The notes: generated from the sequence alone by a model not told the origin. DNA of 64,000 bases from Deltaproteobacteria bacterium (GCA_016197285.1 JACPWD010000019.1:37992-101991); one strand, 5' to 3'. Counted from the stretch's first letter, positions 55,465-62,498 are shown. Numbers and translations: made by a program.

Positions 55465-55506
55465 GGCCCGAATGACATCATTCGGGCCTTTTCCTTTTAT
55501 TTTTCC
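55465..55506 (+). terminator. Rho-independent terminator (GGCCCGAATGACATCATTCGGGCC followed by TTTTCCTTTTATTTTT) at the end of a ~700-bp AT-rich non-coding region
   Basis: Perfect 10-bp stem plus a T-run on the plus strand. There is no plus-strand CDS upstream, which suggests an unannotated plus-strand transcript (sRNA?) ending here. It could also act bidirectionally for the minus gene ending at 55497. Confidence 0.5.
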
Positions 55507-56084
55507 AGCTCTTCTCGGATAGAAGACATCTTCTGGCGCGCCTCGATAATGCAGGCGTCGAGATTGCGGCGGTGGTTGGCAGAAAGCCCACTCGGACTGC
55601 CGTCTCGTACCCCAGACACATACAGGCGTAACCGCTCGATTCCTTGGGCAAAACGACTTTCGGCGGAAGGGAACCAGAAGCGTTCGGCCTCGTTCTCGAA
55701 CAGGGTATCCGCTTCTAACAGGTTCGGGTCATATTCGTTGATCGAGACTTTCGTAAGATGTTCCTTAAATACCCGTAAACTCTCACGAAATGTCTGAAGG
55801 AGACCAAGCTGACGAGAGGCGTTATTATCTGCCCATAGTCGTGGCCCCCACAGGAAAAAGTCGTTTGGCCGCCATCCGAACCCGTCCTGGAGTTCGTGAG
55901 CCATTAGGGCGATCAATGTCGAAGCGAAGATTTCTCCAGGCTGAAAAGTGTGTTCGGCAAACTCCCCTGAGCCGAAATCCATCGGCAGTCGGTTATGCCT
56001 TCCCTGCCCAATCCAGAGCGCCAACATCCCACTCAGCCAGAGAAGAATCAGGACTCTGCCACTGCGTCTTGGCGGACGAAACAT
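55497..56084 (-). CDS. Hypothetical membrane-anchored protein (195 aa)
   Basis: N-terminal transmembrane helix (VLILLWLSGMLALWIG), then a soluble domain. Unknown family. Confidence 0.5.
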   Translation of the reverse strand: MFRPPRRSGRVLILLWLSGMLALWIGQGRHNRLPMDFGSGEFAEHTFQPGEIFASTLIALMAHELQDGFGWRPNDFFLWGPRLWADNNASRQLGLLQTFRESLRVFKEHLTKVSINEYDPNLLEADTLFENEAERFWFPSAESRFAQGIERLRLYVSGVRDGSPSGLSANHRRNLDACIIEARQKMSSIREELEK

Positions 56085-56167
56085 GAGTCATGATCCCATT
56101 GCCCTTTTGCCGAGGCAAGAACATTTTCATTTTTGTCTTGCTCGTTGCCTGACAAGCCGGGCCTCGC

Positions 56168-56929
56168 GTGGTATTTTGCCGGCGGTTCCTCGAAGAAAAG
56201 GCGCATTCCCGCGTGGCAAGAAAACTCCAGTCCTCTCGGCGGTCGGATTCCCCGGTGAGCAGCGAAGCTTCCTCTGAGGAACGGTCCCCAACGAAAGAAC
56301 GTATCCTCGACAGCGCCGAAGAGCTTTTCGCACAAAAAGGATTCGACGGTGCGCGCACGCGCGATATCGCCGCCCGAGCCAGCGTTAATATCTCTACCCT
56401 GCACTTTCACTGCAAGAGCAAGGAAGATCTCTATACTGCCGTCTACCAGCGGCAAATCGCTCGGCGTACAGCGCTTGCCGGGGAGGTGCTAGCCGTGTTT
56501 TCGCAAGCTGGCGATTCCCCGGACAGATGGTCGTCGATTGCCCAAGCCATCGTGACTCTGCTCTTCGATTTTTTTCGCCGTTACCCGCACGCCGCTCGGC
56601 TCGATAGTTACCGCCTCCTTGAAGATACCGCTCCCCACTCCACGCTCCAGCAAGGGCAAGCGTTGCTCTTTTCGGTTGCCGAGCAGTTACGGAATTTTTT
56701 GCCGAAAGATCTTGCTCCGACCGCCGATGTGGCCCTCAATATCCTCTCGGTCAATGCCTTGCTGCGTGAGTATTTTGCCAGCCCGGAAGTGTTTGGACAG
56801 TTGCTAGGAGAGTCTGACCGGAGCCGTCTGGAAGCTCGTCTTCATCGGCACGTCCAGCAGCATGTGACGCGGCTTTTCCGGATGCTTGAAGCCTCGTCTG
56901 GACAACCCGCAGCTACGGCAGAGCGATAA
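56168..56929 (+). CDS. TetR-family transcriptional regulator
   Basis: TetR N-terminal HTH (ERILDSAEELFAQKGFDGARTRDIAARASVNISTLHFHCKSKEDLY). The true start is probably downstream of 56168; the N-terminal part of the track ORF lacks an RBS. Confidence 0.75.
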   Translation: MVFCRRFLEEKAHSRVARKLQSSRRSDSPVSSEASSEERSPTKERILDSAEELFAQKGFDGARTRDIAARASVNISTLHFHCKSKEDLYTAVYQRQIARRTALAGEVLAVFSQAGDSPDRWSSIAQAIVTLLFDFFRRYPHAARLDSYRLLEDTAPHSTLQQGQALLFSVAEQLRNFLPKDLAPTADVALNILSVNALLREYFASPEVFGQLLGESDRSRLEARLHRHVQQHVTRLFRMLEASSGQPAATAER

Positions 56930-59000
56930 TCAGGTTCTGCTCTTGATCCACAGTGATGTGCGCCGCCGTTCCTACCACCACGGTACATTCGCGTTCTTCA
57001 ATGACGGCAGGTCCAGAGAAAGTCTCACCGGAAGGAAGCGCGTAGCGGTCGTACACATCGCACCGTGCAAATCCGCCGCGTTCGGGCAGATACACGTCAC
57101 GAGCGCCTTTGCGCGCGGCGGCAACCGTCCGCCCTGTCTGCTCCGGCGTTTGTAGCCGAATGGCGGGCGACGGTCCCGAGGCCACCAGACGCCAGTTGAC
57201 TACCTCGATTTCTACCCCAGGATTGAGCCGTTTGTATAAACGCTTGTACTCCTCGTCGAACGCCCGTTGGAGTGCTGGCAGGTCCGCTTTCGTGAGCTGC
57301 TTGTCTGGGAGAGCAACCCGGATCTCGAACCCTTGGTGCAAGTAGCGCATATCCGCTGAGCGCGAAAGCGTCACCATGCCTTCGACTCCGGCGGCTTCCA
57401 ACAACGCGCGTCCACGCTCCTCCATGTCGCGATACAGGCGTTCCAATGCAGCGAAGTCGAGTTCCGACAACGGCGAGACATAGCTCTGCACGAAATCGAA
57501 GGCCAACGGCGCGGTTAGCATGCCAAAGGCCGAGGTGACACCGGCGGCGAGCGGACTCACCAGCGTTTTCAACTTCAACCGCTCGGCGACGCGATAGGCG
57601 TGTACGGGTCCGGCCCCGCCGAAAGCGATGAGGCCATAATCGCGCGGATCTCGCCCCTTCTCCACTAGATGCATACGCGCCGCGTTCGCCATGTTCTCGT
57701 TCACCACTTGATGAATGCCCCAGGCCGCGCGGATCATGTCTACTCCGAGCGGGCGAGCGATTTTCTTTTCTATCGCTTGCTGCGCCTTTTCCAGATTGAG
57801 GCGCATTTTTCCGCCGAGGAAATACTCTAGACTCAAATAGCCCAGCACCAAATCCGCATCCGTTACCGTTGGTTCCTCGCCGCCCCGGTCATAACATACC
57901 GGTCCCGGTTCGGCTCCAGCGCTGTCGGGGCCGACTTTGAGCAGCCCCAGTTTATCCACGCGCGCGATGCTTCCTCCGCCGGCGCCAATTTCGATCATTT
58001 CGATCACCGGCACTTTCAACGGTAGACCGCTGCCCTTCTTAAAACGGTACACTCGCGCCGCCTCGAAGTCCGTCGTCAACAGCGGCTTGCCGTGATCGAT
58101 CAAACAGATCTTCGCCGTCGTTCCTCCCATGTCGAACGAAATGACGCGGTCCATCTTGCGGTGCGTGCCGTGGAAGACGGCGGCAAGTGCCCCGGCTGCC
58201 GGGCCGGATTCGATCAGGCGGATTGGATATTCGCTGGCAACCCTGCAACTGGTGATGCCTCCGTTCGAGAGCATGATGAAAATGTCGCGCGGCAAGCCTA
58301 GAGCACGTAGGTCCGCGTTGAGTTGCTCCAGATAGCGCTTCGCCAGTGGCTGCACGTAGACGTTCGCCACCGTGGTCGAGGTTCGTTCGTATTCGCGGAT
58401 CTCCGGCATGACCTCGCTCGATACCGAGCACGAGAGCTGAGGGAAATGCGTGAGGACCAATCGTTTGATCGTCTGTTCATGGGCGGGATTACGAAACGCA
58501 TGCAGCAGGCAGACGGCCAGCGCCTCTATCCCGTCGTCCGCTAATCCCTGAATCACTGCGAGCGCTTCAGCGGGATCGAGCAGTATCATGACACGTCCGG
58601 CATGATCGAGCCGTTCGGTGACTTCACGCCGCAAGAAGCGAGGGACAAGCGGTTCTGGGTTTTCCAAAGAGATGTCGTAGATGTCATAACGCCGCTCGCG
58701 ACCGATTTCCAAGGCGTCGCGAAATCCTTTGGTGGTAATCAGGCCGGTCTTCGCTCCTTTGCGCTCGATAATGGCGTTGGTAATCAGCGTGGTGCCGTGA
58801 ACGAGATGGGTGACCGACTGCGGCGCCAGACCTTGGTCGGTGAGGAGTTCGCGGAGGCCGTGTACGACTGCTTCTGCAGGATTCCGTGGAGTGGTCAGCA
58901 CCTTACCGATGGCAATGTGGTCGCCGGAGTCGGACAGCAAGAAAATATCGGTGAAGGTGCCGCCAATATCCACGCCAACGCGATAGGTCTGCTGTGTCAT
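56913..59000 (-). CDS. hyuA: Hydantoinase A / N-methylhydantoinase A (HyuA, oxoprolinase family)
   Basis: YRVGVDIGGTFTDIFLL...HGTTLITNAIIERKGAKTGLITTKGFRDALEI: Hydantoinase_A N-terminal and C-terminal domains. Start at MTQQTY (ATG 58998-59000). No hyuB partner in the window. Confidence 0.85.
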   Translation of the reverse strand: MTQQTYRVGVDIGGTFTDIFLLSDSGDHIAIGKVLTTPRNPAEAVVHGLRELLTDQGLAPQSVTHLVHGTTLITNAIIERKGAKTGLITTKGFRDALEIGRERRYDIYDISLENPEPLVPRFLRREVTERLDHAGRVMILLDPAEALAVIQGLADDGIEALAVCLLHAFRNPAHEQTIKRLVLTHFPQLSCSVSSEVMPEIREYERTSTTVANVYVQPLAKRYLEQLNADLRALGLPRDIFIMLSNGGITSCRVASEYPIRLIESGPAAGALAAVFHGTHRKMDRVISFDMGGTTAKICLIDHGKPLLTTDFEAARVYRFKKGSGLPLKVPVIEMIEIGAGGGSIARVDKLGLLKVGPDSAGAEPGPVCYDRGGEEPTVTDADLVLGYLSLEYFLGGKMRLNLEKAQQAIEKKIARPLGVDMIRAAWGIHQVVNENMANAARMHLVEKGRDPRDYGLIAFGGAGPVHAYRVAERLKLKTLVSPLAAGVTSAFGMLTAPLAFDFVQSYVSPLSELDFAALERLYRDMEERGRALLEAAGVEGMVTLSRSADMRYLHQGFEIRVALPDKQLTKADLPALQRAFDEEYKRLYKRLNPGVEIEVVNWRLVASGPSPAIRLQTPEQTGRTVAAARKGARDVYLPERGGFARCDVYDRYALPSGETFSGPAVIEERECTVVVGTAAHITVDQEQNLIIALP

Positions 59001-59093
59001 GGCGGCACTATACCTGAGCGAGGGAGGAGCTGTCAGCCTGCTGCCGGCGAGTGGCGCGGCAGAAAAGAAAAGAGTACCCTGAGCGCGGAAAGG

Positions 59094-60092
59094 ATGGTGG
59101 GGATGCCGCAACGATCTCGTAACCGAGGTAAGAATTTTCAATCGTCAGACCGTCAACCACGGTTCTCGCGCGACTCGCGCGGACCAAAAGCGCGGCCTGC
59201 TAGAGCCGCTTCACCTTCGGCCGCCCTGCAAGAATTTCAAGCCCGAGTCGCGATCACCCCGAATCGTAAGATTCCTTTGGCAGGGCCGGACGCCCCTCTC
59301 ACTTTGCGGGTGCTCGACCTCATTTGCCCCATCGGCTTCGGTCAACGCGCTTTAATTTTAGCGCCGCCGCGAACCGGAAAGACGACCTTTCTGAGAGATT
59401 TATGCTTGGGCGTGACCGCTGGTGCGCCGACTGCCCTCCTGTATGCGCTCTTGGTGGATGAACGGCCGGAAGAAGTGACGGATTTTCGTCGTTCGGTGCA
59501 GGCCGAGGTATTTGCCTCTTCCAATGACCGCTCGTTAGAAGAGCATTTAGCCACGGCAGCCACATGTTTAGAGAAAGCCATCACCGAAGCGCTGACCGGG
59601 AAAGATGTTGTCATCGTGGTGGACTCCCTCACGCGCTTGTCGCGCGCCCATAACCTCAACACCAGTACTGGCCGGACCATGAGCGGTGGGATCGACGCCA
59701 ACGCTTTGGAACTGCCGAAGCGCTTCTTCGGCGCGGCACGGCAGCTGGAAAATAGCGGCTCGCTGACCATTATTGCCACCGCGCTGATCGACACTGGGAG
59801 CCGCATGGATGAAGTGATTGCGCAGGAGTTCAAAGGCACTGGGAACACGGAAGTGCTGCTGGACCGACGGCTCGCGGATCGCCGCATCTTTCCCGCGATC
59901 GATATCGCCAAATCCGGCACCCGCAAAGAAGAGCAGTTGCTCGATCCCGCCGCGCTCAAAGTCTCTCATCTGCTTCGTCGCCACTGCGCGGAGCAAACCA
60001 CAGTAGAGGCGACGAAACTCCTACTGACGTTTTTCGAGAAGACGCCGTCAAACGAGGCGTTAATCGCCGAGCTGAGCAGAGAGTCGCTCTGA
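59094..60092 (+). CDS. rho: Transcription termination factor Rho ATPase domain protein lacking the N-terminal OB-fold RNA-binding domain (Arg-rich N-terminus instead)
   Basis: RVLDLICPIGFGQRALILAPPRTGKTTFL (Walker A), LLVDERPEEVTDFRRSVQAEV, TIIATALIDTGSRMDEVIAQEFKGTGNTEVLLDRRLADRRIFPAIDIAKSGTRKEE, about 70% identical to the E. coli Rho C-terminal domain. Only ~60 aa precede the connector (MVGMPQRSRNRGKNFQSSDRQPRFSRDSRGPKARPARAASP...). The hyuA start on the opposite strand leaves no room for an N-terminal domain. Confidence 0.8.
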   Translation: MVGMPQRSRNRGKNFQSSDRQPRFSRDSRGPKARPARAASPSAALQEFQARVAITPNRKIPLAGPDAPLTLRVLDLICPIGFGQRALILAPPRTGKTTFLRDLCLGVTAGAPTALLYALLVDERPEEVTDFRRSVQAEVFASSNDRSLEEHLATAATCLEKAITEALTGKDVVIVVDSLTRLSRAHNLNTSTGRTMSGGIDANALELPKRFFGAARQLENSGSLTIIATALIDTGSRMDEVIAQEFKGTGNTEVLLDRRLADRRIFPAIDIAKSGTRKEEQLLDPAALKVSHLLRRHCAEQTTVEATKLLLTFFEKTPSNEALIAELSRESL

Positions 60093-60357
60093 GGCTGAGG
60101 GGAAAATAACGATGCAGACGGAGACTCCTATCTCGGGTGTTCGCGCGACACAGCAACAGAGGATGCACGTTGCTAAATGGAGGAACCCTTGTTACGAGAT
60201 GGAGGAATTTACTTGTTCCTAAATGTAGAAGCATCGCGGTTGCTACATCTAGGAACACATCGCTAGTAGTAGCAGCAGGTTGCTACTACTAGGAACAGGC
60301 TGAAGTCGTCTAATTTATGTTAGACGGCTTCGTAATGAATGACCAGGAGGAGGGCGT

Positions 60358-61344
60358 GTGTTTCACGATCTGGTTGTCGCCATCCGGACGTCTCGCTCAG
60401 CATTCAGCTTTCTTGTGCTTGGTCTCCTATGCAGCGTCGCAACGATCGGGAGCGCGTGGTATCTGAATGAGGCCCTCACTCGTCTGCTGCCAGCACTGCT
60501 AGCTGAAGGTGCATTGATTTTTCTTTCGGCGCTGGTAATCGAGCGGACGCTTCTGCGCGAGTTCGATTCATCCGCCCATGAGCGGACAGAACGACTTACC
60601 GAAGATGTCACGGCGTCGATCACAACATTCTTCAAGGACAGGTTTGATGACTTCCAACTGTCCGATGAATATCAAGTCCACTTTGCGCCACCCAGGCGCT
60701 CAGGTTCAAGACATCCCCTCGAGACATATGACAAGATCGCTGAAGCAATTAGCAGAGCCAAGACATTGAGAATCTGCTGCACGTCTGGCATCGATATCTT
60801 CCCTCCGCCGAACACGATTCCGACGCCAATCGTGACAATGATTCGTAACAGAGTCCAGAGGCCCGAGACGTTCTCCATTACAGTGTTGTCGTGCGATCCG
60901 ACTGGTGAATACGCCAGAATCCGCGGCAGACTCGAGAACAAGGTGAATCCTAACTATCTTCAGCGAGATATCGAGGACTCTCAACTATGCCTGAATCAAA
61001 TAGCGTACTCGGCCAAACCCGAGTTCACCTGGCTGTGGCTCACACACCGCGCGATGCCACAGGCGTGGTTCGCTCTTACCGAAACGGATGGCTTCATCGA
61101 GATCTATCACTTTGGACTGGGACGGCGAGATCCTGGTGACGGCAACTCTTGCATCGGAGGTCGGATTCCGATTCTCCACGTCTCCGCAGGTTCTAGCCTG
61201 TGGCAAGCTATGAACGAGTATTTCGACTTCCTCGTGACGCCAAATACTGATACAGAGATAGAGAGAATCCGAACCGAGTATTTTGGAGTCACGGTCGTGC
61301 AGCAGGGCCGAGGTGCCGACGGGCAGACAACTACCGCAAGTTGA
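60358..61344 (+). CDS. Hypothetical membrane protein (two N-terminal transmembrane helices plus ~230-aa soluble domain of unknown family), lower-GC; immediately upstream of the TIR gene
   Basis: GTG/TTG start with a strong RBS (ACCAGGAGGAGGG). Transmembrane helices SAFSFLVLGLLCSVATIGSAWYL and GALIFLSALVIERTLL. I find no recognisable catalytic motifs. Confidence 0.6.
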   Translation: MFHDLVVAIRTSRSAFSFLVLGLLCSVATIGSAWYLNEALTRLLPALLAEGALIFLSALVIERTLLREFDSSAHERTERLTEDVTASITTFFKDRFDDFQLSDEYQVHFAPPRRSGSRHPLETYDKIAEAISRAKTLRICCTSGIDIFPPPNTIPTPIVTMIRNRVQRPETFSITVLSCDPTGEYARIRGRLENKVNPNYLQRDIEDSQLCLNQIAYSAKPEFTWLWLTHRAMPQAWFALTETDGFIEIYHFGLGRRDPGDGNSCIGGRIPILHVSAGSSLWQAMNEYFDFLVTPNTDTEIERIRTEYFGVTVVQQGRGADGQTTTAS

Positions 61345-61556: not shown

Positions 61557-62498
61557 ATGATTCCGTCGGCATTCATTTCTTATTCCTGGGACGATGACGC
61601 TCACAAGGAGTGGGTCCGCACGCTTGCCGAGCGTCTTCGCGCGGATGGCGTCGACGTCATTCTCGACAGATGGGCAACAGTCCCAGGAGATCAACTCCCT
61701 GCCTTCATGGAGGGGGCTATCCGCGAAAACCAGTTTATTGTCATTATCTGCACCCCTCGTTATAAGAGCCGCTCAGACGCACGTGAGGGTGGCGTCGGCT
61801 ACGAGGGAGACATCATGACAGCAGAAGCCATGACTTGGCAGAACAATCGCAAGTTCATTCCAGTATTGCGAAGCGGCACTTGGCCCCTAGCCGCGCCATC
61901 TTGGCTCGCCGGGAAGTACTACATCAACCTCTCGGGCAATCCCTACTCTGAGCGAGATTACGAGGACCTCGTCCGTACGTTACTGGGGATCCGCGAGACT
62001 GCGCCACCGATTGGCAAGCCGATGGCAACGGTCAATCCAAACACGAACCCACAGCCCGAAGCATCACGCCGCAGCCCTAGCGTAGACTTCGAAGACATCA
62101 AGATCATGCGCGTGATCGTCGAAGACATTACGGAGCCGCGTAACGACGGCACCCGGGGGAGTGCTCTATACGCTATTCCCTTCGCCCTTTCTCGCCGACC
62201 ACCTGCGGAATGGGCGGAGCTGTTCATAGCCAACTGGAACCATCCTCCTCGGTTTACTACGATGCCCCGGCCCGGGATCGCAAGGATTTATGGCACCACG
62301 GTGACGCTAGATGGAACGACCATCGAGGAAGTCGAGCGGTACCATCGCGATACACTCCAGTTGGCGGTCGCTGAAGCCAATCGGCAATACCGTGAGTGGC
62401 GACACAAGCAGGAGCAACTCCGTGCGCAGGAGCAGGCACAGCATGAAGAACACCAAAAACGTGTCGAGGATATCTCAAAGCGTATCAGGTTCGACTGA
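61557..62498 (+). CDS. TIR-domain protein (N-terminal TIR/TIR-like fold, C-terminal ~150-aa unknown domain)
   Basis: AFISYSWDDDAHKEWVRTLAERLRADGVDVILDRW...PGDQLPAFMEGAIRENQFIVIICTPRYKSRSDAREG: the FISYS...D..PG...I..ai..s...ivi.S..Y pattern of bacterial TIR_2/DUF1863 domains. ATG at 61557 (RBS AAGGA). Confidence 0.75.
   Translation: MIPSAFISYSWDDDAHKEWVRTLAERLRADGVDVILDRWATVPGDQLPAFMEGAIRENQFIVIICTPRYKSRSDAREGGVGYEGDIMTAEAMTWQNNRKFIPVLRSGTWPLAAPSWLAGKYYINLSGNPYSERDYEDLVRTLLGIRETAPPIGKPMATVNPNTNPQPEASRRSPSVDFEDIKIMRVIVEDITEPRNDGTRGSALYAIPFALSRRPPAEWAELFIANWNHPPRFTTMPRPGIARIYGTTVTLDGTTIEEVERYHRDTLQLAVAEANRQYREWRHKQEQLRAQEQAQHEEHQKRVEDISKRIRFD

Follow-up and report, generated by a model that had tools for sequence, protein, structure and literature searches.

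A gene for a Rho-type protein without the RNA-binding OB fold lies at positions 59103..60092 (+ strand) of a 64,000-nucleotide stretch of Deltaproteobacteria bacterium DNA (GCA_016197285.1, JACPWD010000019.1:37992-101991), referred to here in its full length as the window. The open reading frame (ORF) ends at 60092 and encodes 329 amino acids plus a stop codon. The product is 100% identical to P0001, a 329-aa protein from a 127-kb contig deposited as [quoted passage not shown] (MAG, metagenome-assembled genome). Rho action is taught as a two-site process, in which the OB-fold primary sites pick C-rich rut RNA and the RNA then reaches the motor channel. A first-pass annotation of the window had described the ORF as a Rho RecA-like ATPase domain from which the entire N-terminal helix bundle and OB fold are missing, and both halves of this description were borne out by the following analyses.

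In the Pfam search, the generic ATPase domain PF00006 was the sole domain detected in the 329-aa protein. Neither PF07497 (Rho_RNA_bind, the OB fold; no match at E ≤ 1) nor PF07498 (the Rho_N helix bundle) was matched in the protein or in the upstream extension of its reading frame. The NCBIfam Rho model NF006886 gave 362 bits (cut-off 315) in a match confined to model positions 131–412 of 413, and it is because this score exceeds the cut-off that PGAP assigns the name "Rho"; TIGR00767 gave 349 bits versus a cut-off of 509. Rho chains in the PDB (M. tuberculosis, T. thermophilus, E. coli, and T. maritima) were matched with E values of 2e-81 to 9e-72, in alignments beginning only at query residue ~43–64. 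An AlphaFold2 model built from 32 family members had a mean predicted local distance difference test (pLDDT) score of 84.7, with residues 1–34 below 50 and the rest confidently folded. When this model was submitted to Foldseek, the top 50 PDB matches were all Rho (E. coli Rho: query-based template modeling (TM) score, TMq, 0.80; E 2e-33). The generic nature of the only Pfam domain would also fit a different RecA-family hexameric ATPase, such as the FliI/type III secretion system ATPase or an F1-like enzyme, an outcome that the first-pass annotation had itself envisaged. However, FliI, the best-scoring non-Rho ATPase model, and the SctN and F1 models reached ~78 bits or less, against 349–362 bits for the Rho models, the Foldseek matches were to Rho, and the Rho-specific Q-loop and R-loop motifs of the C-terminal domain (CTD) are invariant. 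The probability of this explanation is, in our view, negligible.

An alignment of the kind proposed in the first-pass annotation showed that canonical homology starts at residue ~43: position 131 of NF006886 aligns with approximately residue 43, and residues 329–613 of M. tuberculosis Rho align with residues 43–326. Instead of the ~60 residues that had been counted before the connector, ~42 lie ahead of the point where homology to canonical Rho begins, and 35 of these belong to a basic tail. In the connector, the helix formed by residues 40–47 has pLDDT values above 90, and S39, F45, P53, and L59 vary little or not at all. Residues ~43–329 constitute the complete Rho connector plus the C-terminal motor, and residues 1–35 are disordered.

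The residues of the motor were mapped to E. coli Rho through an alignment with the structure 1pv4, and their conservation was taken from two family alignments of 22–32 members (Table 1). The Walker A motif maps onto K184 and T185 of E. coli Rho. In the Q-loop, G190, T192, S194, G195, G196, and D198 are invariant, and T286 of E. coli is replaced by an invariant serine. In the R-loop, T231, G232, S233, and D236 do not vary; residue 234 is mostly arginine, and is leucine or valine in one sub-clade. The ratio of nonsynonymous to synonymous substitution rates (dN/dS) of the CTD was 0.02–0.09 (Nei–Gojobori method, ten pairs), and the motor is under strong purifying selection. The fold (TM score 0.80) and the motif conservation predict that the protein would form a homo-hexameric ring with RNA-dependent ATPase activity, translocate in the 5'→3' direction, and terminate transcription.

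Table 1. Coordinates of the sequence features in and around the OB-less rho gene (window positions; residue numbers refer to the 329-aa protein)
Feature	Position	Strand	Remarks
hyuA (hydantoinase/oxoprolinase A), divergent neighbour	56913..59000	-	Pfam Hydantoinase_A 6.5e-87; start at 59000
Divergent intergenic region, hyuA/rho, 102 bp	59001..59102		Conserved blocks CACTATA, CTGTCAG, GAGTGGCG, AGAAAAGAGTA
Shine-Dalgarno GGAAAGGA	59087..59094	+	8 nt before ATG 59103; AAGGA core invariant in 9-sequence upstream alignment
N-terminal tail MPQRSRNRGKNFQSSDRQPRFSRDSRGPKARPARA, residues 1–35	59103..59207	+	9 R, 2 K, 2 D; net charge ~+9
Conserved pre-CTD connector ASPSAALQEFQARVAITPNRKIPLAG, residues 36–61	59208..59285	+	Canonical Rho linker homology begins here
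Walker A/P-loop PPRTGKT, residues 88–94 (E. coli 179–185)	59364..59384	+	P89, G92, K93, T94 invariant
Catalytic Glu E120 and Arg valve R121 (E. coli E211/R212)	59460..59465	+	In invariant ERPEEVTD motif
Walker B Asp D174 (E. coli D265)	59622..59624	+	Invariant DSLTRL motif
Q-loop TSTGRTMSGGID, residues 187–198 (E. coli 278–290), secondary (channel) RNA-binding site	59661..59696	+	
R-loop TGSRMD, residues 231–236 (E. coli 322–327; K326 -> R234)	59793..59810	+	
Arginine finger R261 (E. coli R366)	59883..59885	+	Invariant R261-x-F263-P264-A265

In order to search for the missing part, a profile hidden Markov model (HMM) was built from 28 full-length Rho N-terminal domains (NTDs). With this HMM, six-frame translations of the window together with 37 related loci (724 kb in all) gave nothing at E ≤ 10, and no split-off NTD gene was present within ±10 kb in those 37 loci; all seven positive-control loci were matched (2e-9 to 9e-79). 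The N-terminally reduced architecture is real. The start had initially been placed at ATG 59094, a codon that the relatives do not conserve; the conserved start is ATG 59103 (MPQRS...), 9 nt later, which does not vary among the nine related upstream regions that were aligned and which agrees with the length of the deposited P0001. The first-pass annotation had also argued that the start of hyuA excludes a longer N-terminus. The conclusion holds but the reasoning does not: the + frame is open back to 58545 (186 codons), and a 496-aa ORF is possible from 58602, so the hyuA start alone is insufficient. A longer N-terminus is ruled out because the extension, which overlaps hyuA in antisense, has no Pfam match, is blank with the NTD HMM, and is interrupted in relatives (e.g. 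L021, L018, and L025) by in-frame stops 1–7 codons upstream of the conserved ATG.

A one-genome-per-GTDB-species scan, which matched exact 8-mers from the 329-aa protein and thus gives a lower bound, detected at least 33 OB-less rho loci (L018–L050) in Binatia species genomes, with 70–96% identity. At least 13 of the 33 are on closed Candidatus Binatia chromosomes of 3.8–6.0 Mb, with one locus found in each; closed Binatia chromosomes with the gene are OZ244620.1, OZ252051.1, OY282457.1, OZ242288.1, OX638322.1, OY763426.1, OY761159.2, OZ243979.1, OZ220487.1, OY729511.1, OZ241351.1, OZ241332.1, and OZ246888.1. Among the protein matches listed, ~70 clusters (90% identity) of OB-less proteins of 313–331 aa were obtained, 66–100% identical and labelled Binatia, Deltaproteobacteria, or, rarely, Methylomirabilota. 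The open upstream frame in the window could be taken as the trace of a normal rho that has been truncated, turned into a pseudogene, or broken by an assembly or frameshift error. We consider this highly improbable, because the architecture recurs with a conserved start, Shine-Dalgarno sequence, and synteny in these genomes, long-read closed chromosomes among them; the stops in several relatives, the absence of Rho-NTD similarity in the upstream frame, and the low dN/dS of the CTD also argue against it.

The single locus per genome lies in conserved synteny across Binatia, consistent with vertical inheritance. In the sub-lineage of the window, the order is VWA, DUF2333, hyuA (leftward), and rho (rightward), followed by the convergent lpd-sucB-sucA-RidA genes; in most other Binatia, a convergent RidA gene directly follows rho. 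The identity of rho among relatives is comparable to that of SucA, Lpd, and HyuA. In the window itself, synteny with the relatives breaks immediately after rho. A 328-aa ORF (60358-61344) without a Pfam or PADLOC match is followed by a gene for a bSEFIR/TIR defence protein (61557-62498; PADLOC bSEFIR 1.4e-65, Pfam TIR_2/SEFIR), 1.5 kb downstream of rho. The two look like a small defence islet inserted beside a core gene, because they occupy the place of lpd-sucB-sucA or RidA in the relatives. This neighbourhood would fit a Rho-like motor serving the adjacent island, at whose border the first-pass annotation had placed the gene. A functional tie did not survive the comparison: relatives without the island keep rho in the conserved core context, with lpd-sucB-sucA or RidA downstream, and linkage to bSEFIR was absent in the relatives compared. 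In addition, the best PADLOC match of the OB-less Rho itself was mad8 with E 0.008 and no significant stretch, and no family member was found on the viral contigs searched. The rho gene is a core gene that borders the small insertion and lies outside it, and a role as an island motor is very improbable. Even jointly, this possibility, an artefact, and a non-Rho ATPase carry only a small probability.

The sequence of the N-terminal tail quoted in the first-pass annotation was correct, and its suggestion of an arginine-rich RNA-binding surrogate was partly supported, in that the arginine-rich character proved to be a conserved feature. The 86 unique tails of the family have a median length of 34 aa (range 13–56) and a median net charge of +9 (range +2 to +12), and consist of 27% Arg, 14% Gln, 13% Gly, 7% Asn, and 6% hydrophobic residues; RGRGGR-like motifs occur in many of them. 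Between genomes whose CTDs are 88–89% identical, the identity of the tails falls to 26–51%, and their dN/dS was 0.1–1.5, a noisy estimate from 33–36 codons. It is the composition, charge, and length of the tail that are conserved rather than the sequence. This pattern is what is usually seen in functional disordered regions that bind nucleic acids, and the conservation of the arginine-rich tail therefore makes a role as an RNA-binding surrogate plausible.

OB-less Rho proteins are not confined to Binatia. When cluster representatives at 50% identity were searched exhaustively, further OB-less, basic-tailed clusters were obtained, namely P0125, P0126, P0189, P0140, P0151, and P0079/81/83, in all of which PF00006 is the sole Rho domain. 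A profile made from these clusters matched well over 100 further PF00006-only "Rho" proteins of 296–477 aa. The labels among the profile matches include Omnitrophota and Eisenbacteria, and members of the P0189 cluster are labelled Hydrogenedentes. Examples are P0416, P0455, and P0482 (Omnitrophota), P0189/P0389 (Hydrogenedentes), P0151/P0502 (Eisenbacteria-labelled), and L101-L103. Such proteins are abundant in several candidate phyla. Their tails, in sequences annotated plainly as Rho, are long (up to ~150 aa), disordered, and basic or Pro/Gly-rich. At L101, the OB-less rho and the 3' end of an ABC-F-type ATPase gene share 4 nt. None of the neighbourhoods of the Vicinamibacteria rho, P0083, one Omnitrophota locus, and the P0428 locus was common with that of the Binatia rho.

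In a bootstrapped neighbour-joining tree of the CTDs, the Binatia family was monophyletic (100%) and was grouped, at a moderate 61%, with two further OB-less clades. Another four lineages without the OB fold were placed elsewhere in the tree, suggesting that the OB fold was lost several times independently. The nearest OB-containing proteins were the Rho of Vicinamibacteria (P0124/P0276 and L052), which have the architecture [basic IDR]-[OB]-[CTD], where IDR stands for intrinsically disordered region. Among the matches listed from 5.8 billion proteins, none of the CTDs of full-length Rho was more than 59% identical to the OB-less family, and therefore a recent duplication within the lineage is excluded. 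No Binatia-labelled full-length Rho was present among the matches listed, and a search with P0124, the nearest OB-containing representative, returned only Vicinamibacteria-type proteins among the matches listed; an old, divergent canonical paralog would be invisible to all the searches made. Some apparent close relatives were discarded. P0072 and P0073 (441 and 413 bits) were rejected as canonical Rho of the same clade: these two and P0123 are "Rho" sequences with internally duplicated CTD segments, probably chimeric metagenome assemblies, whose bit scores are inflated and which can pass for close full-length relatives. The closest genuine full-length match, P0105 (59% identity), is not from Binatia; it lies on a 30%-GC contig beside the S10 ribosomal operon, and its neighbours in the match list are labelled Sulfurovum/Nitratifractor.

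The OB-less Rho was then compared with the known Rho types. With canonical Rho (E. coli, "Type 1") it shares the connector and the whole RecA-type CTD (~46% identity, TM score 0.80), but it has no equivalents of E. coli residues 1–~128, which hold PF07498 and PF07497, and carries the 35-aa basic disordered tail instead. "Group B"/"Type 4" Rho and the proteins of NF041509 (paralog_Rho2) resemble it in their shortened N-terminus and conserved ATPase; however, they lose the helix bundle alone and retain the OB fold. NF041509, "Rho, short form", was rejected as a label for the OB-less Rho, since the OB fold is part of that model and the score, 313.5 bits versus a cut-off of 628, was half of that required, with only model positions 76–359 of 360 matched. 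The other OB-less family members likewise fail this model, and a Type-4-like protein, P0089, aligns to it from position 18, as opposed to position 76 for the OB-less Rho. In "Type 2" Rho (the NID of M. tuberculosis, M. luteus, and Bacteroides), the N-terminal side likewise contains a disordered basic stretch rich in Arg, Gly, and Gln, but there the IDR supplements an intact OB fold, whereas here the tail is the only thing upstream of the motor.

A classification by Moreira et al. (2024; PMC11347177) distinguishes functional Rho of Types 1–4, all with the RNA-binding domain, and terms sequences with a single Rho domain "Rho-like", taking them as non-functional and confining their description to its supplement. 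The OB-less Rho, with its ATPase domain only, falls outside Types 1–4 and fits the definition of "Rho-like". In contrast to what that term implies, the OB-less Rho is a conserved family across the sampled Binatia and several uncultured phyla, under strong purifying selection. The dataset of that study comprised 2730 complete RefSeq genomes, and Binatia is not among the phyla named in the passages considered here. The Vicinamibacteria (Acidobacteriota) Rho P0276, P0124, and L052 have the closest OB-containing CTDs (57% identity, 325 bits) and an N-terminal basic low-complexity region, and L052 has the same unusual CPIGFGQR motif as the OB-less Rho. Unlike the OB-less Rho, they keep Rho_RNA_bind (Pfam 2.6e-10/2.6e-11), and their gene neighbourhood differs. 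In these proteins and in L098, Rho_N is absent and a His/Arg-rich low-complexity tail is followed by a divergent OB fold. It is plausible, from this arrangement, that the Vicinamibacteria Rho represents an intermediate toward the OB-less form.

On balance, we lean slightly towards the view that the OB-less protein is the principal, possibly the only, Rho of its lineage and works as an active hexameric motor whose tail captures RNA. The protein would be a Rho-type hexameric 5'→3' RNA translocase minus the helix bundle and the OB-fold primary site, in which a disordered, Arg/Gln/Gly-rich tail of ~35 residues leads straight into the connector and the RecA-type motor. Six subunits would form the usual ring, and the six basic tails (~+54 charge per hexamer), projecting from the side that the OB folds usually occupy, may first capture RNA non-specifically by electrostatic interaction. 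The RNA would then be passed to the conserved Q-/R-loop channel, possibly with NusG aiding ring closure, and ATP-driven translocation would terminate transcription or remove R-loops. As for its origin, the protein may well derive from an ancestor arranged as [basic IDR]-[OB]-[CTD], which would take on exactly the present architecture once its OB fold was removed. The literature supports such a mechanism by analogy, short of proof. Experiments on Rho from GC-rich organisms have shown that its Arg-rich disordered segments, such as those of M. tuberculosis and M. luteus, strengthen RNA binding and direct the choice of Rut sites (PMC13650167; PMC11347177); Rut-site selection in M. tuberculosis is governed by the IDR, always beside an OB fold. 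The KOW domain of NusG docks on the CTD of Rho and favours closure of the ring even when the RNA contains no C (PMC7819879).

Several points weigh against the protein being the principal Rho. RNA binding by E. coli Rho depends on the primary site and the basic N-terminus, and is abolished when 27 N-terminal residues are removed (both cited in PMC11347177); a Rho with neither would therefore be unprecedented as the sole terminator. The same paper states that N-terminally reduced copies usually accompany a full-length copy. The patterns used in our GTDB-species scan were specific to the OB-less protein, and a divergent canonical rho would be invisible to that scan. The stem branch leading to the Binatia family in the CTD tree is long, and the OB-less Rho evolves no slower than the neighbouring metabolic enzymes; both observations would fit a diverged paralog, and both are compatible with either reading. 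The protein might accordingly be an ancient specialised paralog of a canonical full-length Rho encoded elsewhere in the Binatia genomes. It could then be a homo-hexamer with a distinct job, e.g. the clearance of R-loops or antisense RNA without rut specificity, or it could borrow canonical OB folds in hetero-hexamers. According to PMC11347177, ~4% of complete genomes hold two rho genes, the shorter copy being N-terminally reduced, and hetero-hexamers have been proposed. The grouping of the Binatia family at 61% bootstrap with OB-less clades of widely differing locus GC (49% vs 55–64%) could also mean an old paralog family. On the other hand, the matches listed contained neither a Binatia-labelled full-length Rho nor a CTD closer than 59%, so that any duplication must be very old; the known paralogs (Group B/Type 4 and NF041509) keep the OB fold, and no NTD-only gene lies within ±10 kb. 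The first-pass annotation had set an unusual housekeeping Rho beside a second, specialised one, and these two are still the appropriate alternatives. We regard the paralog as a substantial possibility, clearly on the lower side of even.

Returning to the reading of the OB-less protein as the principal Rho, its extension to whole lineages is a little short of probable: Binatia may have no Rho other than the OB-less, basic-tailed form, and the same may hold for Omnitrophota, Hydrogenedentes, and further uncultured lineages with this design. If so, it would be a fifth structural type of functional Rho, the OB-fold primary site that is held to recognise rut sites would be dispensable, and an RGG-like disordered tail would be able to capture RNA, perhaps together with NusG. 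The RNA-binding domain deemed "essential" in Rho may thus be dispensable. A large natural family with a fully constrained motor, no primary site, and an Arg-rich tail of conserved composition instead offers a direct natural test of what the primary site does and bears on the possible choice of termination targets where genomes are GC-rich. It also extends the work on the disordered insertion of M. tuberculosis Rho to the extreme in which the IDR is all that remains. The OB-less, basic-tailed Rho is widespread in uncultured lineages and essentially undescribed. PGAP names these proteins "Rho", but domain-based censuses would score them as no functional Rho, and the presence or absence of Rho in uncultured phyla is therefore ambiguous at present.

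Some further observations were made on the surroundings of the gene and on the related contigs. The divergent hyuA/rho pairing is kept in the sub-lineage of the window. A sigma-70-like promoter for hyuA was predicted in the intergenic region (59036..59007, - strand), and an Rfam search of the region upstream of rho matched no RNA leader or riboswitch. The DUF2333 gene (55497-56929 region) is truncated here, encoding 195 aa versus 302–305 aa in L001/L004, and a TetR-family regulator (56168-56929) lies between it and hyuA; none was called at that position in L001/L004. L019, L020, L027, L039, and L046 are Binatia-type contigs, several of which were deposited as "uncultured Enterobacteriaceae bacterium" (binchicken co-assemblies), and one Methylomirabilota and one Thermodesulfobacteriota label also occur among the mislabelled contigs. 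These record titles disagree with the gene content, and the taxonomic labels on those MAGs are therefore unreliable. Downstream of rho, positions 60168-60331 contain four copies of a ~20-nt direct repeat, GGTTGCTACATCTAGGAACA, at a spacing of 22–46 nt, interleaved with three strong hairpins at 60214-60257 (15-nt arms), 60263-60292 (perfect, 12 nt), and 60302-60331 (12 nt). This region sits exactly at the synteny break; it could represent a group of terminators, an array of binding sites, or a scar or end left by an insertion.

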